Positions 10,860-41,010 of a DNA stretch of 64,000 nt are shown here, piece after piece. The notes beneath the pieces were generated by a model that worked only from the letters and a program-made list of their open reading frames with translations, was not told the DNA's origin and ran no database searches. This DNA comes from Vampirovibrionales bacterium (GTDB lineage Bacteria > Cyanobacteriota > Vampirovibrionia > Vampirovibrionales > JAJTHC01): positions 66,980 to 130,979 of the forward strand of contig JBIKTR010000004.1 of NCBI GenBank assembly GCA_044348005.1. The letters are read 5' to 3'. The position numbers were made by a program, and so were the translations under genes. Every line of letters begins with the position of its first letter. Positions within the stretch are counted from its first letter, which is position 1.

Positions 10860-11025
10860 TTCATAAACAATTAAGAAATTACCCCTTGCATTATTTAAAT
10901 AAGTCGTTCATAATGGTGAAGATGGTTCTTTGAAATTTTCATATACATGTAATGACCCACCAAAAAAGGCAAGTGCTTACGAGGTTTAAACCCCTTTGGC
11001 ACGACGCTGTTTTTTAAAGACATGG

Positions 11026-11462
11026 GGTCGTTCTGGACTTGACAGGACGAATTCTTGTGACTGGGTTGCGCGTCGAGGACGCTTAATCCTCGTTAATCCT
11101 GAGCAAAACAATAAATGCAGAAACTCAAACTGCTCGCAACAATGTTGTTGCTTTTGCACGTCCAGTACGTGCAAAAATCGCTGCTTAATTCTTTTAAGTA
11201 GTAAACATTGCTTGTTCCCACACATGCTATCATGCTGCTAAGGTGGGCTTGCTAATTCGCATGACCATGCTGAAAGACTCATTGGCTCTTCAGTACAGCG
11301 TATGCGTCAATGCGTCCGAACACGGACGTAAAACGGGTTAAAGTTCGTGGTGAACTGGGGTACACAGCTACCACGAAACGAAACACTCTAAAGTTACCTA
11401 CACGCGTAGACGCCTGGAGGCAATCGTTTTGGACGAGGGTTCGATTCCCTCCGACTCCACCA
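11026..11462 (+). ncRNA. ssrA: Transfer-messenger RNA (ssrA)
   Basis: 5' GGGGUCGUUCUGGACUUGACAGGACG and 3' GGACGAGGGUUCGAUUCCCUCCGACUCCACCA (T-arm and acceptor with G3-U70); tag frame GCU CGC AAC AAU GUU GUU GCU UUU GCA CGU...GCU GCU UAA gives ARNNVVAFARPVRAKIAA, resembling cyanobacterial ANNIV.FAR..AA tags. Confidence 0.75.
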
Positions 11463-30602: not shown

Positions 30603-31421
30603 CTATCCTAAGCTGATGTGTTCAGGGAGTTGGATAATTTCAAAAATAGGTTCGACGCTCAAGCATTGACCGCTTTCCGCTTCGATCACAAAGCGTACGG
30701 CGTTAATCTGAATCTGCGGACTTTTGGCCACTTCCATTTTCACCCAGCCGAGTTCAGTCATGCGTCGTTGAGCTGCCAAGGGTTCCATGCCAATCACGCT
30801 TTCATAGGTGCCGTTCATCCCAGCATCGGTGATGAAGCCCGTGCGCTCATGCAAAATGCGAGCATCGTTGGTTTGCACATGGGTATGCGTGCCGACTACG
30901 GCGGACGCTCCCAATTGCGACGCATAACGCGCCAAGGCGCCTTTTTCGGCGGTGGCTTCGGCGTGAATGTCCACAAACACAATCGGGGTAACGTTTAAGA
31001 GCTGGGGCAATTCGGCGTCTAACACTTCCCAAGGCGAGTTGTAATTCGCCATAAAGACCTGCCCCAACACGTTTAGAACCCCCACCTTCTGGCCCTCAAC
31101 ATCCACAATACGGGCGCCTCGCCCCGGCACATGACGCCCTGCGATGTTGGCGGGTCTCACCAGGCGTTCGGCGTTGTTCATAAACTCGAACGATTCTTTG
31201 CGATCGAAGGTGTGATTGCCCCCTGTGAGGGCATGAAAACCGTGACCGATCATGTCTTGGTAATGTTTTTCAGAAGTGCCAGCGCCATGGGTGATATTTT
31301 CGGCATTGGCAATGAGCATATCAGGCTTGCGTTTGAGGTGATGTTCCAAAAAATAGTAGACGCCTTCACGCCCCGGTTTACCGATCACGTCTCCGAAAAA
31401 GAGGATTTCAAATGTAGACAT
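30603..31421 (-). CDS. YmdB-like metallophosphoesterase (TIGR00282)
   Basis: ILFFGDVIGKPGR and GNHTFD calcineurin-like motifs; start set at MSTFEIL (ORF extends to 31535); 5 bp upstream of the PBP gene. Confidence 0.75.
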   Translation of the reverse strand: MSTFEILFFGDVIGKPGREGVYYFLEHHLKRKPDMLIANAENITHGAGTSEKHYQDMIGHGFHALTGGNHTFDRKESFEFMNNAERLVRPANIAGRHVPGRGARIVDVEGQKVGVLNVLGQVFMANYNSPWEVLDAELPQLLNVTPIVFVDIHAEATAEKGALARYASQLGASAVVGTHTHVQTNDARILHERTGFITDAGMNGTYESVIGMEPLAAQRRMTELGWVKMEVAKSPQIQINAVRFVIEAESGQCLSVEPIFEIIQLPEHISLG

Positions 31422-31571
31422 CCACGACTCACTTTCTATAGCTTTCTTAGGATTATCCCTTAAACAGGCGTTTACTTCAAGTGGGTGTGTGAGCTCTTTT
31501 CCAGAGCGGAGCCTTTGTGCTAGAATAAGGGGCATACATGGGCGAATGACGCCACAAACAAGAAGGAAATA

Positions 31572-32735
31572 ATGGCAATGACCAGCTATACAACGCTAGA
31601 GGTGGAAAACTTCAAGGGCATCCGTAAGATGAAACTTGAGGGCTTGGGCATGGTGAATGTGTTTGTGGGGGGCAACAACGTCGGCAAGACCTCCGTTTTG
31701 CAGGCGTTGAATATACATTTTAATAACTCTCAAAATAGACATAATGAGGTTGTGGAAAATTTGAAAGGTCATTTTTACGATGGTGTATTAACCCATTTAA
31801 TTGACGAATTAAATCCTGTTAATAATTTTTATAAGACTCTTACGGATAATGTAAAAATACAGATTGAGACGGATTTAGACTGTAGCTTCATAAGTGCGAG
31901 ATTCGATTCAAGCAGTGCAAGCCCTAGTATTGAAATAGAACCATCAATCGAGTTGTCTTATTCCCAAAAAGGAGTATTATGTAACACTCATAGAACTCCA
32001 TCAATAATCACGATCTTAGTAGATAGTTTGGAAGAAATAAAAACAAGAAAAGTTAGTAATATACTCGAAGTTTATCGTAACTTTAATAAACAATCTCATT
32101 ATATTGGAAGCAAAGCTGATGTTACAAAATTTTCAGAACATCTGTTTCAAACTTATATTGAAAATAAGCAAAAGAACAAGGTTATTACTTTATTGCAAAA
32201 ATCAATTCAACCTAACCTTATTGATATCGTGTATGCACCTGCAAGTAAGCTACTATGTGAGTTGAGTGATTATCCTAAGATGATTCCCTTAGACGTCATG
32301 GGTGACGGTTTTGTTAAGCTGTTGGGTTTGGCTTGTCTAATAGGTATACCTAAAAATATTTTCCTTGTTGACGAACTTGAAAACGGGTTTCATTACAGCG
32401 TCCAAGAAGACATGTGGCGGATGATCCTCACCGCGGCGAAAGAAGACGGTACGCAGTTCTTCTTCACCACCCACAGCTACGAGGTGCTGGAATCGTTGAA
32501 CGCCATGACGCAGAAAATCACCGCTGAATGGGAACAAGAAAAAGCTGAAGGCTATCAAGACGGCAAACTCCTTGTCGGTGAAAACAAAACGCCTATGGAA
32601 CCTGTCTGTGTGTTTGAACTTGAAAAAAGTACAGATGATGTGGTGACATACAAAAGATTTGCAGGAAAATCTTTAAATGGGGCAATAAAGCGTCACATGG
32701 AATTAAGAGGGAAAGGTGCAAATGCTCATGGCTAA
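31572..32735 (+). CDS. AAA15/ABC-type ATPase of a predicted two-gene defence module (AriA/OLD-ATPase-like)
   Basis: Walker A GGNNVGKTS, signature-like MGDGFVKLL, Walker B IFLVDELENGFH, H-loop FFTTHS; AT-rich (~35% GC); 3' end overlaps the next gene by 20 nt. Confidence 0.75.
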   Translation: MAMTSYTTLEVENFKGIRKMKLEGLGMVNVFVGGNNVGKTSVLQALNIHFNNSQNRHNEVVENLKGHFYDGVLTHLIDELNPVNNFYKTLTDNVKIQIETDLDCSFISARFDSSSASPSIEIEPSIELSYSQKGVLCNTHRTPSIITILVDSLEEIKTRKVSNILEVYRNFNKQSHYIGSKADVTKFSEHLFQTYIENKQKNKVITLLQKSIQPNLIDIVYAPASKLLCELSDYPKMIPLDVMGDGFVKLLGLACLIGIPKNIFLVDELENGFHYSVQEDMWRMILTAAKEDGTQFFFTTHSYEVLESLNAMTQKITAEWEQEKAEGYQDGKLLVGENKTPMEPVCVFELEKSTDDVVTYKRFAGKSLNGAIKRHMELRGKGANAHG

Positions 32736-33555
32736 TCCTTCCGTTTTAATCATTGTCGAAGGTGAGACAGATAAAGAATGTATCCGTAAAATTTTCGACT
32801 TCAATAAAGAAGACGCTGAAATCCACGCTTTATCTGACTATATACCGTTTGACGAAAACTTGTGTCAATACGAACATACAGGTGGATTCAACCATTTAAA
32901 AGACACTTTGGAAAAACGATTGCTTAGTGACATACTGCCACTTCTTGATGCGGAATGTCTTAAAGCGATTGTTTTAATTGTAGACGGCGATAATGAACCT
33001 ATCTCTAAGCGTCTTCAAGATATTCAAAAGGCTTTTAGTTCCATAAAAGAATTCCAAGAGACAGGACTTATCCCTGATTTTACAGAAAAAGACTGTAATT
33101 CTTTTAGACCTTTAACGATACAGACAAACTCCAAAAAATATCCTTTAGAATTTGGAATCTATATTTTTCAGGATTCAACATATCAAGATTTGGAATCTTT
33201 TTTATTCGCTACAGCAAAAACAAAGAAGCCTACACATCATAAGATCGTGGCTAAGTTTAGAGAAACGTTAAAAAAAGAACTCGTTGATTCAGAGGGGCAG
33301 TATATTGGTCCGAAATATAAAAACGCAGAAGGTAAACATAACGGTTCTTTAAATAAAGCCATTTACCAGATTTATTTACATACCCAACAAGAGCTAGATG
33401 GCTATAGGCGTAATATAGATAAACGACTCGACAAATTTTTTGATTTTTCATTTACAGGGATTGATCAAACCTCACCCATGTGGAACATAAAGAATTGCTA
33501 TGAAGACTTGAAACGCATCATAAATCAAGACGTTACGGCAAAAGAGAGTCCTTAA
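32716..33555 (+). CDS. Standalone TOPRIM-like protein (DUF4435/RloB-like; AriB-like nuclease partner)
   Basis: LIIVEGETDK (TOPRIM Glu) and LIVDGDNEP (DxD) motifs; translationally coupled to the upstream ATPase; AT-rich. Confidence 0.6.
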   Translation: MQMLMANPSVLIIVEGETDKECIRKIFDFNKEDAEIHALSDYIPFDENLCQYEHTGGFNHLKDTLEKRLLSDILPLLDAECLKAIVLIVDGDNEPISKRLQDIQKAFSSIKEFQETGLIPDFTEKDCNSFRPLTIQTNSKKYPLEFGIYIFQDSTYQDLESFLFATAKTKKPTHHKIVAKFRETLKKELVDSEGQYIGPKYKNAEGKHNGSLNKAIYQIYLHTQQELDGYRRNIDKRLDKFFDFSFTGIDQTSPMWNIKNCYEDLKRIINQDVTAKESP

Positions 33556-33640
33556 AGCGTCCCAATAATCGAGGGGTTTAGGCATTCGGCAGGGCGTTGA
33601 AAAGGCGTCATCCTGAAAAAGTAGTAGGCTAGCTTCCTAT

Positions 33641-33668
33641 CCCCCCCTCCTAAAATCAGGAGGGGGGG
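33641..33668 (+). terminator. Hairpin cccccctcct-aaaatc-aggagggggg downstream of the ATPase/TOPRIM pair
   Basis: 10-bp GC-rich perfect stem 85 nt after the stop. Confidence 0.4.
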
Positions 33669-33700
33669 ACAAGAACAATAATCGTGCTATACTCAAGGGT

Positions 33701-35563
33701 ATGCAAACACTCATCCAACACTTTGAAAAACAGTGGGCGAAAGTCCTCGTCTACCTGTCGATATTCGGCTTGCTTCTGCACGGCGTTTTCATCTTCGCCT
33801 CCCCAACCCACGCCCAAATCCCCCTCATCGCCCTGCTTTGGGTCGGTGCCGTCCCGCTGACGATAGAAGCCCTCATCAAGCTCTACCAAAAAGACTTCGG
33901 GGCGGATCTGCTCGCTGTTCTCGCCATGCTCACCAGCCTAGTCATGCACGAATACCTCGCAGGCGGACTCATCGTGCTGATGCTCGCAGGCGGTCAAAGC
34001 TTGGAACAATACGCCCTTAAAAAAGCGTCTTCGGTGCTTGAAGCGCTGGCTAAACGCATGCCCAATACGGCGCATCGTCAAGAAGGGGGCGAGATTGTGG
34101 AAGTCCCCCTCGACGACATCAAAGTCGGGGATTTACTAGTGATTTTCCCCCACGAAACCGCCCCCGTCGACGGCATCGTGCGTGAAGGCAACGGCACCAT
34201 GGATGAATCCTACCTCACAGGCGAACCCTATCAGGTTTCCAAAGCACCAGGCTCTTCGATTTTGTCGGGAGCGATTAACGGCAACGCCGTTTTGGTGATC
34301 GAAGCGGAAAGGCCTGTGGCCGATTCTCGTTACGCCACGATTATGCAAGTCATGCAAGACGCCGAAGCCAAACGTCCCAACCTTCGACGTTTAGGCGATC
34401 AAATCGGGGCCATTTTCACGCCAATTGCGTTAGCAATTGCCCTTGTCGCATGGGGCTTAACAGGCGATGCCACACGCTTTTTGTCCGTTTTGATGATTGC
34501 CACGCCCTGCCCCTTGCTCATTGCGATTCCCATTACCATTATTAGTGCGATTTCTCTGGCTGCCAAGCACGGCATCATCATCCGAGACCCTGGCATTCTC
34601 GAGCGTTTACCGACCTGTCGCACCGCCATTTTCGACAAAACAGGCACGCTCACTTATGGTAAACCGACTTTAACCGAAATCATCCCCAGTACGCCTTTTA
34701 CTCGCCGAGAACTGCTGCAAGCGGCGGGCAGTTTGGAGCGTTATTCTAAGCATCCGCTAGCCAACGCCTTGATTGAAGCCGCCACCGAAGAGCATTTGGT
34801 GTTGCCTCAAGCCAGCGAAGTGTCTGAAAAACCGGGGCAAGGGTTATTTGGCGTCATTAACGGCAGGGGCTGGCATATCACGAGTCGCCAAAAAATTGGC
34901 CAAAACTGGTCGCAGTTGCTCCCACAATTGCCTCAAAGCACCGTGGGTTTGGAGTGCATCTTGCTTTGTAATAACCAACTGGCTGGCGTTTTTCGTTTGC
35001 GGGATGAGGCACGCTCCGAAGGCAAGTCTTTTATCGGGCATTTGGCACCAGCGCATCAGTTGAACAAGGTCATCTTGCTTTCAGGGGACAGAGCCTCTGA
35101 AGTGGCGTATTTGGCGGATGTCTTGGGGATTGAAGAGACCTTTGCCGAACAGTCTCCCGAACAAAAGGTGGATATTGTTCGAAAAGAAACGGCGTTGGCC
35201 CCCACCTTGTTTATGGGCGACGGCATCAATGATGCGCCCGCCTTAGCCACAGCCACGGTGGGCTTGGCCTTTGGTCAACAAAACAATGTGACCAGTGAAG
35301 CGGCGGGGGCGGTTATTTTAGAAAACACCTTACACAAGGTGGATGAACTCTTACACATTAGTTTGTCGCTACGAAGTATTGCGTTGCAAAGTGCGGTGGG
35401 TGGAATGGTGTTAAGTGTGGTGGGTATGGCACTCGCGGCGATGGGGTACATCTCGCCTGTGCAGGGGGCGTTGGCTCAAGAAGCGATTGATATTTTAGCC
35501 ATTGCCAATGCCTTGCGTCTGGCGTGGCAACCGAATATCGCGACAGACATGCACAGTCATTAA
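33701..35563 (+). CDS. P-type ATPase, probably P1B heavy-metal transporter lacking an N-terminal metal-binding domain
   Basis: DKTGTLT phosphorylation site, GDGINDAPAL hinge, TGEP, and a PCP-type motif (ATPCPLL) in the TM helix. Confidence 0.8.
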   Translation: MQTLIQHFEKQWAKVLVYLSIFGLLLHGVFIFASPTHAQIPLIALLWVGAVPLTIEALIKLYQKDFGADLLAVLAMLTSLVMHEYLAGGLIVLMLAGGQSLEQYALKKASSVLEALAKRMPNTAHRQEGGEIVEVPLDDIKVGDLLVIFPHETAPVDGIVREGNGTMDESYLTGEPYQVSKAPGSSILSGAINGNAVLVIEAERPVADSRYATIMQVMQDAEAKRPNLRRLGDQIGAIFTPIALAIALVAWGLTGDATRFLSVLMIATPCPLLIAIPITIISAISLAAKHGIIIRDPGILERLPTCRTAIFDKTGTLTYGKPTLTEIIPSTPFTRRELLQAAGSLERYSKHPLANALIEAATEEHLVLPQASEVSEKPGQGLFGVINGRGWHITSRQKIGQNWSQLLPQLPQSTVGLECILLCNNQLAGVFRLRDEARSEGKSFIGHLAPAHQLNKVILLSGDRASEVAYLADVLGIEETFAEQSPEQKVDIVRKETALAPTLFMGDGINDAPALATATVGLAFGQQNNVTSEAAGAVILENTLHKVDELLHISLSLRSIALQSAVGGMVLSVVGMALAAMGYISPVQGALAQEAIDILAIANALRLAWQPNIATDMHSH

Positions 35564-35698: not shown

Positions 35699-36367
35699 AT
35701 GAAGCGGGTTCATGTGTTTATTGATGGCTTTAATATGTACCATGCTTTAGAAGAATACCGTAGACATACAGGTGAAAATCTTAAATGGTTGAATTATAGA
35801 AGCCTTATGGAAAGTTTCGCTTCATCTGAAGAAATAGTAACAAGCATACACTTTTTTACTGCGATTGATGAGAAGCGTCCCGACGATGTCATTCAACGAC
35901 ACCATAATTATATTGGGGCTTTAAAAACTCAAAACATCGAAGTATATCGAGGGGTTTTTAAGCACCGCAAGCAAACTTGCAAGTCCTGCCACGCTTCATG
36001 GGAAAAAGCTGAAGAAAAAGAAACTGACGTTCGTATCGCCTGTAAAATTTTAGAATTTGCGATGAAAGACTTCTTTGATGAGTTTTGGCTCGTTTCGGGG
36101 GATAGTGATTTTGTGCCTGTTATTCAATCTTTTAAATCCCTTTTTCCTCACAAATCCATTAAGGTCATTATTCCCCCAAAATATAACCGAAATGGTCAAT
36201 ACGGTAATCCCTATGCGGCTAAAACATTCGCTAAAAGTAAAAAAAGCCAAGCAGAAACGCATCAGTTGGGATTTAGAGCATGCTCTAAGCACCCTTTGGC
36301 GGATGAACTCATCAACCCCAAAGGACGACGCTTTACAAATCCGTATCTCCAAAATAGTAGCCCATAA
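35699..36367 (+). CDS. NYN-domain (LabA/DUF88-like) protein
   Basis: VHVFIDGFNMYH and LVSGDSDFVPV NYN catalytic motifs; AT-rich; TTGACA-17-CATAAT promoter at 35594-35622; ORF extends to 35651. Confidence 0.7.
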   Translation: MKRVHVFIDGFNMYHALEEYRRHTGENLKWLNYRSLMESFASSEEIVTSIHFFTAIDEKRPDDVIQRHHNYIGALKTQNIEVYRGVFKHRKQTCKSCHASWEKAEEKETDVRIACKILEFAMKDFFDEFWLVSGDSDFVPVIQSFKSLFPHKSIKVIIPPKYNRNGQYGNPYAAKTFAKSKKSQAETHQLGFRACSKHPLADELINPKGRRFTNPYLQNSSP

Positions 36368-38372: not shown

Positions 38373-39326
38373 CTAGGGAGACATCGCATCACAGGCCGTC
38401 CACAAATCCTTAAACAGCGGAGACGACAAATAACGTTCCCCATTGGAACACTGAATGGTGACAATCAGTTGGCCGTTTGATTCAGGACGCTTGGCCACTT
38501 CAAGGGCGGCCCACACATTGGCCCCAGAAGAAATGCCCGACATCATGCCTTCTTTTAAGGCCAAGTCTTTCGCCACCGTCATGGCGGTTTCAGAAGAAAC
38601 GGGGATGATTTCATCAATGACGTGGGGGTCTAAAATACTCGGCACAAAACCTGCCCCGATGCCTTGAATCAGATGAGGGCCAGCAACTTGCCCACTCAAA
38701 ACGGCACTTTCAGCCGGTTCAACCGCAATGATTTTAATGTGAGGGTTTTGTTCCTTCAAAAAACGCCCAACCCCTGTAATGGTCCCCCCTGTGCCCACCC
38801 CCGCAATAAAGACATCCACCTTGCCTTGGGTGCTTTGCCAAATTTCAGGGGCGGTGGTTTTATAATGAATTGCTGAATTGGCGGGGTTGCCGAATTGATC
38901 CAACAAATAGGCATTGGGAGTCGATTCAACAAGGGTTTGGGCATATTCACAGGCGCCCTTCATGCCGAGAGAAGCAGGGGTGAGTTGGACATCCGCACCA
39001 TAGGCTTTTAAAATCACCCGACGTTCCATGGAACAGTTTTCAGGCATCACAATAATGAGCCGATACCCTTTGACCGCGGCTACCATGGCAAGGGCAATAC
39101 CGCTATTGCCACTGGTGGGTTCAACCAACACACTTTGGCTGGGGTGAATCAGGCCTTTGGCTTCGGCCTCTTCAATCAAGTACAGGCCGACACGATCCTT
39201 AATGCTACCCCCTGGGAGTCGGGATTCTTGTTTGACGGCGATTTGAGCGTGCAGGCCTTGGCTCAGCGCGTTGAGCAAGACCAAGGGGGTATCTTTAATG
39301 GTTTGGGTAATACAGTCCACCAACAT
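38373..39326 (-). CDS. cysK: Cysteine synthase (O-acetylserine sulfhydrylase)
   Basis: PLP-lysine region GGSIKDR, SGNSGIALAMVAA, GTGGT loop. Confidence 0.85.
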   Translation of the reverse strand: MLVDCITQTIKDTPLVLLNALSQGLHAQIAVKQESRLPGGSIKDRVGLYLIEEAEAKGLIHPSQSVLVEPTSGNSGIALAMVAAVKGYRLIIVMPENCSMERRVILKAYGADVQLTPASLGMKGACEYAQTLVESTPNAYLLDQFGNPANSAIHYKTTAPEIWQSTQGKVDVFIAGVGTGGTITGVGRFLKEQNPHIKIIAVEPAESAVLSGQVAGPHLIQGIGAGFVPSILDPHVIDEIIPVSSETAMTVAKDLALKEGMMSGISSGANVWAALEVAKRPESNGQLIVTIQCSNGERYLSSPLFKDLWTACDAMSP

Positions 39327-39407
39327 GCGGGGGGGTGTTCCTTTTAATGAAGAACTAGAGACTTTACAGTATAGCAAAAGTATAGCAAAAAAGTCTGGGA
39401 ATCTCTC

Positions 39408-39450
39408 TAAAAAAGAAAAACCGCTGGTTTTCTTAAAACACCCAGCGGCA
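39408..39450 (-). terminator. Intrinsic terminator downstream of the aminotransferase/repeat region
   Basis: ccgctgg/ccagcgg stem with the minus-strand T-run tttttcttttttag. Confidence 0.45.
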
Positions 39451-39639
39451 AACCCAATTTGACCAGAATAAAAGTAAAAAGCGTCAGACTCCTGTACAGT
39501 GGAGCAACTGGCTTTGTAAATCTATCTTAATAAAATAAAAACAGGCAGAAATAATGCCCAATCGTTACAATGTGCAATGTTTGTTTCAACACATCACTTA
39601 GGTGGTGTCGACATTTATAGTGTCGAGGGTATAGAGAAA

Positions 39640-39835
39640 AAGCGAAGGTATTTTAAATGACGTGAAAAAATGACTAAATTGAGCCTTCTATAGGGTTCGA
39701 AAGATAAAATAGGCGATGAGGCTATTCTAGGAGCCTAGATTTTTTTGTGCGGGCGTGTACACAGACGACCATAACCAAACAAAAAAATCGCAGCGACAAC
39801 GAAGAGACCATAGACCGTTTTATCTCGCGAACACG
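39640..39835. repeat. Family C dispersed repeat
   Basis: ggctattctaggagcctaga and cgcagcgacaacgaagagaccatagaccgttttatc shared (inverted) with 54525-54650, and partly with 9300-9420 and 56070-56110. Confidence 0.55.
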
Positions 39836-39837
39836 AC

Positions 39838-41010
39838 CTAACTTAGGCGACGAATGGCCTCTTCTAAGGTGGCAATTTCTTTAGCAAAACAAATTCGCAC
39901 AAACCCACTTCGAGGCGCTTGAACAAACGTACACCCCGGCACAACGGAAATCCCGGCCGTGTGAATAAGTTCTTTGGCCCAGCGCCATTCATCGTCCACC
40001 CCGAGCGTTTTTTTCAAATCAAGCCAAATATAATAGGCCCCTTCTGGCAAATAGGCCTGCGCCTGTTCAGCAGAAATGCCGAACGCCTGTACGACTTGCA
40101 AGGCCACACGACGTTTTTCGGCATAGGTGGCTTGAACTTCCGCTTGCAAAGTGGGGGTATACGCGTTCAAGGCTTCAGCAGCCACCAATTGAAAGAAGGT
40201 GTTGGTGCCTGCGGTGCTTAAGTCATGTAAGCTTCTAAAGGCGTGTGTGAATTCAGCAGGGCCCACCGCCCAACCGACTCGCCAACCTGTTGCGCTAATG
40301 AGTTTTGAACACGAACCAAGCGTCACGGTTCGTTCCGCCATGCCTGCCATGCGAGCCAACGGCGTAAAGGTGCGCCCGTCGTAAAGGAGCTGATCGTACA
40401 CTTCATCCGTCAAACACCACAAATTGTGTTGAATCGCTACATCGGCCAGGGCGTGCAGTTCGGCGTCCGTCAACACCCGCCCCGTTGGATTGTTCGGATT
40501 GTTGATCAAGATCGCCTTAGTGTTTGGGGTAATAAGGGCGTCTAAAACTTCTGCTTCAATGCGAAAATCAGGCGCTTTTAAGGGGTAAAAAACGGGAATG
40601 GCCCCTAAGCTTTTGACTAAATCATGATACGGTTCATAAAAGGGTTCAAAAACAAGGACTTCATCGCCCGCGTTGACGAACGCTTTTAAGGCCAAATACA
40701 ACGCTTCTGTGGCGCCACAGGTAATGGTGACTTCACGTTCAGCGTCGTAATGTAGACCATAAAAACGCTGGTAATACGACGCCACCGCTTCACGCGTTTG
40801 ACGGGCGCCCCAGGTGTTACGCAGCTGGTGAAGATCTTTGCCTTGTGCCAAGACGTCTTCATAAGCGGCTAACACCCAAGGGGGGGGATCGTAATCAGGC
40901 AAGCCTTCGGCCAAATTAAGCGCCTGTTTTTCCACCGCCAAACGAGACATTTCACAGATTAACGATTCCTGCACCCCTTGCGTGATGCGAGACAATGGCG
41001 GAATCCACAT
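39838..41010 (-). CDS. Class I/II PLP-dependent aminotransferase
   Basis: 390 aa; NPTG, SKLISATGWRVGW (Lys-PLP region); start overlaps the mraY stop (TAATG). Confidence 0.8.
   Translation of the reverse strand: MWIPPLSRITQGVQESLICEMSRLAVEKQALNLAEGLPDYDPPPWVLAAYEDVLAQGKDLHQLRNTWGARQTREAVASYYQRFYGLHYDAEREVTITCGATEALYLALKAFVNAGDEVLVFEPFYEPYHDLVKSLGAIPVFYPLKAPDFRIEAEVLDALITPNTKAILINNPNNPTGRVLTDAELHALADVAIQHNLWCLTDEVYDQLLYDGRTFTPLARMAGMAERTVTLGSCSKLISATGWRVGWAVGPAEFTHAFRSLHDLSTAGTNTFFQLVAAEALNAYTPTLQAEVQATYAEKRRVALQVVQAFGISAEQAQAYLPEGAYYIWLDLKKTLGVDDEWRWAKELIHTAGISVVPGCTFVQAPRSGFVRICFAKEIATLEEAIRRLS

Follow-up and report, generated by a model that had tools for sequence, protein, structure and literature searches.

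What does a pair of overlapping genes of low guanine-plus-cytosine (GC) content, the first for an ATPase and the second for a protein of the DUF3226 family, do for the bacterium that carries it? The question is raised by a locus on contig JBIKTR010000004.1 (assembly GCA_044348005.1) of an uncultured freshwater Vampirovibrionales bacterium (JAJTHC01), of which we analysed the 64,000 nucleotides from 66,980 to 130,979 of the forward strand; this whole stretch is referred to as the window, its positions are counted from its first letter, and loci in relatives are cited by labels such as L003–L007, L083–L085, L088, L090, L094 and L096. Gene A (31572..32735, + strand) encodes a 387-residue SMC/Rad50-like ABC ATPase (AAA_15/AAA_21), a putative sensor or scaffold, and gene B (32722..33555, +) encodes a 277-residue DUF3226 protein, putatively an effector nuclease of the Toprim-like, two-metal type, for which an alternative GTG start at 32716 would give 279 residues. 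Combinations of an ABC ATPase with a Toprim protein, such as OLD, Gabija, PARIS, AbiL and MADS, form a major and partly understood branch of bacterial immunity. We favour, at a probability of roughly 0.62, the reading that the pair is a two-gene anti-phage module of the class in which an ABC-ATPase sensor works with a separate Toprim nuclease (PARIS AriA/AriB, AbiL, MADS mad3/mad4), in this case with a DUF3226 partner.

An ATPase paired with a DUF3226 protein

The same pair, with the AAA_15/AAA_21 ATPase first, was found in 9 of 9 independent relatives whose contigs were read. The two genes overlap or sit no more than 15 nucleotides apart in all nine, always split and never fused, and the neighbourhoods are unrelated (threonyl-tRNA synthetase and che genes, flagellar genes, DnaB/UbiD, MetH and others). 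Because the adjacent pair recurs in every one of these relatives, its arrangement in the window is not a matter of chance. The open reading frames listed for it in a first-pass annotation (A at 31572..32735, +, 387 residues; B at 32716..33555, +, 279 residues from the GTG) were borne out, as were all the motifs quoted there, VGGNNVGKTS, MGDGFVKLL, LVDELENGFH and TTHS in A and IIVEGETDK and IVDGDNEP in B. Public gene calls start B at the ATG at 32722 (277 residues), which a Shine-Dalgarno-like run, GAGGGAAAGG, precedes by 7–10 nucleotides. The genes overlap with either start, as had been claimed, though by 14 nucleotides from this ATG rather than 20. The contrast in GC content given earlier, about 35% against 53% in the flanks, also holds at somewhat different values: the module has 36.9% (A 38.1%, B 34.8%; local values across the pair 0.30–0.44) against 50.1% over the 5 kb on its left, 53.4% in the gene for a P-type ATPase on its right and 48.3% for the window as a whole. 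The drop is concentrated in two variable segments (31.2% and 34.8%), and conserved blocks stand at 45.6–49%. The window contains the module only once.

The protein encoded by A matches Pfam AAA_15 (7e-22) and AAA_21 (7e-18). Among PADLOC models the best match is to AbiLi (PDLC02336, 7.9e-44, model positions 4–340 of 340), followed by PDC-M38A (5.5e-38); the AriA models of PARIS are matched at 1.6e-23 and 6.5e-22, and many other defence ATPases match as well. No NCBIfam model reaches its cutoff for A or B, a match to recF lying far under the cutoff for that model. In an alignment of 65 relatives of A, the Walker A residues G33, N35, G38 and K39 are invariant, as are G244 and G246 of the signature, D267 and E268 of Walker B and H301 of the H-loop. 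An AlphaFold2 (AF2) model built on this alignment has a mean predicted local distance difference test (pLDDT) of 74, with the ATPase core above 90 and residues 58–171 below 50, and a Foldseek search of it against the PDB gives PtuA of Septu (8sux, 1.7e-7) as the best match, together with the retron I-A ATPase (9n69), Rad50 and SMC heads. Judged by its sequence, A is an SMC/Rad50-like ABC ATPase with intact motifs.

B is very isolated: a word-indexed search of 5.8 billion proteins returned one non-identical relative, and a profile of B had only 7 matches in an exhaustive search of 1.84 billion cluster representatives. The protein matches Pfam DUF3226 (PF11536) over profile positions 3–151 of 208 with 35.3 bits (E 1.4e-8), exceeding the gathering cutoff of 27 bits. 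The only other Pfam match at E<=1 is a weak one to 7TMR-HDED, with none to DUF4435, RloB or DUF4276, and the only PADLOC match is a weak one to PDC-M38B (1.8e-5), with none to AriB or AbiLii at E<=1. The partner had initially been described as not confidently assignable to DUF4435, RloB or DUF4276 and as possibly an undescribed variant. It does indeed belong to none of the three, but it can now be placed in DUF3226, above the Pfam cutoff, and in PDC-M38B, a family already catalogued, as an unvalidated candidate only. The profile searches of Pfam and PADLOC that had been proposed as a check thus return AAA_15/AAA_21, AbiLi and PDC-M38A for A, and DUF3226 and PDC-M38B for B. From its matches, B can be classed as a member of a rare, divergent subclade of the DUF3226 family.

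To the family as a whole we could assign 14 members, drawn from the searches above and from genes adjoining homologues of A. All 14 match DUF3226, and the sole recurring secondary Pfam family among them is OLD-like_TOPRIM (6 of 14, best 4.5e-5). In PADLOC, 10 match PDC-M38B (down to 3.6e-11) and 8 match mad4 of MADS; HEC-01B is matched too, and rarer matches are to GajA and to AbiLii (2 of 14, weak at 0.003–0.006). Five residues are invariant in the 14 proteins (E13, D88, D156, E158 and K212) and four nearly so (G14, D17, F179 and G227), and the window protein keeps the full set of candidate catalytic positions, VEG (E13), D17, D88-G-D90, D156/E158 and K212. Their order, a Glu, an acidic residue at +4, the Asp of a DxD, a downstream acidic pair and a Lys, is the order of the two-metal residues of Bp OLD, E400, E404, D455/D457, T506/E508 and K562 (PMC6755086). 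The structure model of B is of poor confidence (pLDDT 62; predicted template-modelling score, pTM, 0.52), and in it motif-bearing helices alternate with four main strands; Foldseek with this model found nothing significant in the PDB, only generic α/β folds (best E 0.028), a result that says little given the quality of the model, and a sequence search of B against PDB chains found no match. The family profile, when compared with the PDB, gives motif-aligned matches at E ~0.1 to an RNase M5-like Toprim protein of Aquifex (1t6t, the top match) and to PH0156 (2p62), the VEGKND and DLD motifs of 1t6t aligning on the Glu and DxD positions of B at E 0.095. On sequence-family evidence, and not on that of a confident fold, we regard B as very probably a Toprim protein of a divergent, OLD-like kind, and the architecture first proposed for the locus, a split ABC ATPase with a standalone Toprim-like partner, is supported.

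Known systems provide the closest comparisons. PARIS likewise has two genes, an AAA_15/21 SMC/Rad50-like ATPase and then a small Toprim-type partner encoded on its own; the AriA models are matched by A (1e-22 to 1e-23), and both ATPases have a variable region beside a conserved core. The pair differs in its partner, for which neither DUF4435 nor AriB gives a match at E<=1, and in the scores of A, which are far higher for AbiLi and PDC-M38A than for AriA. Phage satellites are frequent carriers of PARIS, whereas the present module was not found on viral contigs. A similar picture emerges for AbiL of Lactococcus (AbiLi with the Toprim/OLD-like AbiLii) and the related RloA/RloB: AbiLi is the best PADLOC match of A, over its full length, but B has no AbiLii match and no RloB Pfam match at E<=1. 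AbiL has been placed alongside PARIS among the systems that combine an ATPase with a Toprim protein, its mechanism being unknown (PMC13064643). In the OLD nucleases, both class 1 (P2 Old, TsOLD) and class 2 (GajA, BpOLD), the domains are fused in one polypeptide, whereas here each has a gene of its own; a UvrD-like helicase partner is absent, and the similarity of B is remote. The archaeal PH0156 (PDB 2p62), which may itself be a Pfam DUF3226 member, differs in having no known function or partner. The nearest likeness is to PDC-M38, a PADLOC candidate made up of M38A and M38B, in which the genes are adjacent and in the same order and are matched by A (5.5e-38) and, weakly, by B (1.8e-5), these being matches to models and not system calls; here the difference is that B belongs to a rare divergent subclade. 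Such PADLOC candidates (PDCs) are putative systems from 'guilt-by-embedding' and unvalidated (PMC12988326), and neither DUF3226 nor PDC-M38 is mentioned in any paper of the literature that we searched.

By family membership, then, the pair would not be counted as PARIS, AbiL/RloAB or classical OLD, and fits DUF3226 and PDC-M38; by analogy, it probably works like the PARIS, AbiL/RloAB and OLD systems. OLD, Gabija, retron-OLD, PARIS, AbiL and MADS3-4 have already been grouped as ABC-ATPase plus Toprim systems (PMC13064643, PMC11464382). What the locus adds to them is a distinct uncharacterised partner family, a rare subclade and an organisation of conserved chassis and hypervariable insert, and it is not categorically new.

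Conserved blocks around a hypervariable insert

When the module is compared with those of its relatives, the pair resolves into a mosaic, whose conserved blocks are found again at other loci and in other genomes with breakpoints that agree, for the most part, to within a few nucleotides. The conserved block C1 (31514..31709, +; GC 0.49) consists of a 58-nucleotide leader and codons 1–46 of A, including Walker A. Its identity by blastn is 92.4% to L083, which lies at a different locus (over 31514–31709), 82.7% to L085 and 93.6% to L084 (over 31401–31709), and all three matches share one end point, 31709. The variable segment V1 (31710..32369, +; GC 0.31) follows, covering residues 47–266 of A and containing a hypervariable insert (about residues 47–200) between Walker A and the signature; blastn aligns it with none of the other modules, and its identity in bins of 60 nucleotides is 0.18–0.57. 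The conserved block C2 (32370..32502, +) runs from Walker B to the H-loop (residues 267–311 of A) and is 94.0% identical in L083, 85.3% in L084, where the block reaches 32722, and 86% in L090; at the protein level its identity is 0.82–0.98 in the 21 closest relatives. Its breakpoint falls at 32368–32370 in L083, L084, L088 and L090 and at about 32295–32298, 72–75 nucleotides upstream, in L085 and L094. The last block, C3 (33488..33555, +), encodes the C-terminal tail of B (…CYEDLKRIINQDVTAKESP), a motif kept in all four close relatives of B. C3 is 83.6% identical in L083 and lies in L084 within an 89% block running into the flank, with the breakpoint at 33488 in both.

The contrast between insert and core is extreme. 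Among 22 alleles the median pairwise identity of the insert is 0.21, a level that shuffled controls also reach (0.20), and no more than 6 of the 231 pairs rise above 0.30, whereas the core (the N-terminus plus the Walker B and H-loop block) has a median pairwise protein identity of 0.91. No database protein shares the insert of the window, to which the inserts of the others are 9–19% identical. The A proteins of L083 and the window are 44% identical overall despite the conserved blocks. In L084, which occupies the same site, DNA identity is about 85%, the genome background, in the flanks, in A codons 1–46, in the C-terminal third of A and in the last 68 nucleotides of B, and residues 47–266 of A and the body of B are not alignable. 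This comparison had suggested that V1 and B are exchanged as a unit, a proposal that we rejected, as L083 and L094 have B proteins 80% identical and A tails 90% identical with unrelated inserts (0.15). The alignments indicate that variation in the insert is uncoupled from that in the other parts of the module, and suggest that the insert has repeatedly been replaced by recombination within the conserved blocks, which is a reading of few alleles rather than the outcome of a formal recombination test.

Five modules whose inserts are unrelated share, third codon positions included, the same 59 nucleotides at Walker A, 31647–31705 (+; GGCATGGTGAATGTG…TTGCAGGC), a stretch that stops 9–10 nucleotides before the V1 breakpoint. 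Counted over pairs of these five modules, counts that are not independent of one another, synonymous codon differences amount to 4/196 across the 20 codons beginning with codon 27 and to 56/224 across the 24 codons that precede them; the tract of low synonymous change ends 1–2 codons before the breakpoint. The stretch could be a recombination anchor, a gene-conversion tract or a site of constraint at the nucleotide level.

A tentative extension of these observations, which we consider less likely than not, is that the module is a recombination-diversified immune receptor, in which near-identical blocks, kept at synonymous sites too as far as the breakpoint, could anchor swaps of the sensor insert and, more slowly, of the ATPase tail and the nuclease body. 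If true, a population of Vampirovibrionales would hold a large recognition repertoire on one conserved ATPase–Toprim chassis, much as type I restriction systems exchange their target-recognition domains or polymorphic toxins their tips, but in an ABC-ATPase defence sensor.

Upstream of A, a consensus scan gives a promoter-like site with an extended -10 (TTTCCA-17-TGcTAGAAT; 31498..31526, +), a candidate only, in which a TG precedes the second hexamer. The TGnTAGAAT core of this leader is kept in an alignment of seven modules at different loci. The -10-like site is followed by a hairpin, GGCG…CGCC (31498–31557, + for the two together), for which the fold z-score is only -1.6; in L094 the stem is CGAC…GTCG, so that the sequence has changed and the pairing is kept.

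A strain-variable slot between core genes

The module occupies a slot (31490..33684, unstranded) between a ymdB-like gene (30603–31421, −) and a P-type ATPase gene (33701–35563, +). The ymdB-like gene, whose product is 94–95% identical in five sister metagenome-assembled genomes (MAGs), places the window in a freshwater lineage of Vampirovibrionales (Melainabacteria). Alignments of the flanks to these five genomes end at 31489–31537 and restart at 33642–33685; A and B are absent from this site in all of them (L003–L007), with the flanking genes 91–98% identical. Among six close relatives only L084 has a module at the ymdB / P-type ATPase site (absent in 5 of 6), the copy of L083 lying elsewhere. 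The earlier annotation had reasoned that a housekeeping ABC system with conserved synteny would speak against defence, and no such synteny was found.

The slot holds a different low-GC cargo in each of the five sister genomes. In L005 it is an N6_N4 methyltransferase fused to an Mrr-like endonuclease domain (L005:8393-9892; N6_N4_Mtase 1.4e-42, Mrr_cat 7.4e-6), in L006 a type VI retron reverse transcriptase with a 135-residue neighbour (L006:8375-9163; PADLOC RT_VI 2.3e-51), and in L007 a Ser/Thr kinase like mad6/PD-T4-6 with a 166-residue neighbour (L007:8188-9285; PADLOC mad6 4e-53). The remaining two carry a 178-residue protein with no Pfam or PADLOC match (L003:9246-9782) and a 388-residue TPR protein matching Pfam TPR families (L004:4302-5468). 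The cargo thus matches known defence genes in three sister genomes (L005, L006 and L007), and by these matches the slot can be described as a defence hotspot flanked by core genes. Of the contextual evidence, this speaks most strongly for an immune role, and it supports the candidate-defence reading given in the first-pass annotation with a firmer context than was available there. The proposal made there that the pair was acquired horizontally stands only in part: the variable segments do look foreign, and the conserved blocks do not, being at genome-background divergence in L084. Since the allele of this sister lineage at the same site has conserved blocks at that divergence, the module was probably present in the slot in the ancestral state. 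A single MAG (JBILSS01) is the source of both L004 and L083, and it has the TPR gene in the ymdB slot and the module (L083:6001-7987) at the threonyl-tRNA synthetase / che site; the module therefore moves between sites in this lineage.

A G/C-rich stem-loop with a perfect stem of 12 bp (33640..33669, +; CCCCCCCTCC…GGAGGGGGGG) lies at the right-hand border of the slot, a short way before the P-type ATPase gene. The RNA fold of 33625–33685 has a free energy of -28.4 kcal/mol (z -4.0), with no T-run; the element occurs once in the window (0 expected by chance) and is also found at the slot edge in L003 (L003:9116-9141). A terminator, a regulatory element and a recombination boundary are candidate roles for it. 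There is no tRNA gene near the slot, and no recombinase-like gene is apparent among the open reading frames listed beside it. Scans with protein patterns and with a DNA pattern from C1 found no copy of the module on viral contigs, nor any in metagenome contigs, a collection apparently without these lake samples.

In several relatives B is followed by a third gene of 262–331 residues, usually overlapping it (L085:6046-7038, L088:6779-7651, L090:9877-10665 and L096:5081-6004). This gene is seen in the more distant DUF3226 subclade, the one with a degenerate DxD in B, and has no Pfam or PADLOC family beyond weak matches to Sel1 and bSEFIR; the arrangement may represent a three-gene variant that uses another effector. 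In the window the conserved P-type ATPase gene begins 145 nucleotides past the end of B, and there is no third gene. We considered whether the window holds an incomplete three-gene system, and rejected this as its closest relatives, L083, L084 and L094, also have no third gene. Two sequencing runs, SRR27425987 and SRR27428159, hold contigs identical to the window (L001 and L002) and in addition a second module of ATPase, DUF3226 protein and third gene (L086 and L087). This distant second module may represent a paralogous system, carried by the same organism or within the same population.

A second strain-variable spot is found 2 kb downstream, with a gene for a 222-residue NYN-domain protein (35699–36367, +; GC 0.39) that matches the PADLOC candidate HEC-09 (8.6e-45) and Pfam NYN (5.9e-16); it is present in L001, L004 and L084 and absent from L003, L006 and L007. 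Elsewhere in the window we noted a transfer-messenger RNA gene (11024–11462, +) with the tag peptide ARNNVVAFARPVRAKIAA, unrelated to the module, and a dip in GC to 0.38–0.42 at 39200–39800, in the gap between two open reading frames on the − strand (38373–39377 and 39838–41010).

Mechanism, alternatives and meaning

How would such a module act? In PARIS, a hexamer of AriA sequesters AriB near its ATP sites, poorly conserved surfaces of AriA bind phage triggers, and released AriB dimers cleave tRNA by a two-metal mechanism (PMC11464382, PMC12409363). By analogy, A would oligomerise through its SMC/Rad50-like heads and hold or gate the B nuclease in uninfected cells. The hypervariable insert would recognise a phage-derived trigger, in parallel with the poorly conserved trigger-binding region of AriA (PMC11464382), and an ATP-dependent rearrangement of A would then free or activate B, which would cut nucleic acid by two-metal catalysis with E13/D17, D88/D90, D156/E158 and K212. 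Phage replication would be stopped, for which the infected cell would probably pay a price. The module, sitting in a defence slot accessible to recombination, would diversify mainly by replacement of the insert between near-identical DNA blocks. Release of AriB from the AriA hexamer on a trigger is known only for PARIS of E. coli (PMC11464382, PMC12409363), and it is from there that sequestration, release, trigger, substrate and nuclease activity would be carried over to the present pair.

Several points weigh against an anti-phage module with a Toprim nuclease. PDC-M38 is a computational candidate, the PDCs being explicitly unvalidated (PMC12988326). B itself matches no Toprim Pfam model, so that its link to Toprim is transitive, via its relatives; the mapping of its residues onto OLD follows sequence order and is not a superposition; and the second Asp of the DxD (D90) is not kept family-wide, being lost in the distant subclade (DSS or DES). 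Without copies on viral contigs, the association with mobile elements is limited to the hotspot.

The main rival is that the pair works like OLD or Gabija, A and B forming an obligate and stable complex, in effect an OLD nuclease split in two, which would nick or degrade the DNA of phages or plasmids directly, with the ATPase regulating access to the substrate instead of releasing a free RNase. We consider this rather unlikely, though more likely than any other alternative. Against it, the split genes and the small standalone partner are the arrangement of PARIS and AbiL, and the top profile match in the PDB is the RNase M5-like 1t6t, AriB being M5-like too; the present data fit a DNA or an RNA substrate alike. 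It is improbable, in our judgement, that the module is instead a selfish addiction module similar to a toxin–antitoxin pair, with B as the toxin and A as its neutraliser, maintained by post-segregational killing and giving no net protection from phage. PARIS itself behaves as a toxin–antitoxin pair (PMC13064643, PMC11464382), and the tight coupling of the genes, the patchy distribution and the low GC would suit such a module. Against it, the alternative cargoes of the slot match defence families, and the extreme diversity of one surface-like insert beside a conserved core is expected for the recognition of varying invaders rather than for simple addiction; the addiction and defence readings are not mutually exclusive.

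We think it more improbable still that B is a catalytically dead Toprim-like adaptor, with the effector elsewhere, such as the third gene of some relatives, or with the ATPase itself causing growth arrest. The degenerate DxD (DSS or DES) of the distant subclade, often accompanied by the extra downstream gene of 262–331 residues, would fit this picture. The window protein, however, keeps E…D, DxD, DxE and K, residues E13, D88, D156, E158 and K212 are invariant in 14 of 14 members including those with a degenerate DxD, and the window has the P-type ATPase gene starting 145 nucleotides past B in place of any third gene. Least credible is a housekeeping or accessory DNA-repair pair like RecF (an SMC-like ATPase) and RecR (Toprim), as the module is missing at its site in 5 of 6 close relatives, with unrelated cargo instead, the neighbourhood differs each time in the relatives, a hypervariable insert and low GC are atypical of repair genes, and no NCBIfam model reaches its cutoff.

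An anti-phage ATPase–Toprim module is thus the reading that we prefer, and it bears on both the family and the organism. The branch of these systems with a DUF3226 partner is so far without experimental data, and the locus offers a compact natural example of it with its own promoter-like leader, in a slot whose defence genes in sister genomes support an immune role. Vampirovibrionales are predatory, non-photosynthetic relatives of cyanobacteria; to our knowledge their phages are essentially unknown, and few defence loci have been described for them, this one among them. The pattern of a conserved chassis and a hypervariable insert points to the part of the ATPase most likely to read the phage trigger, and what these ATPases sense thereby becomes directly testable by swaps of the insert.

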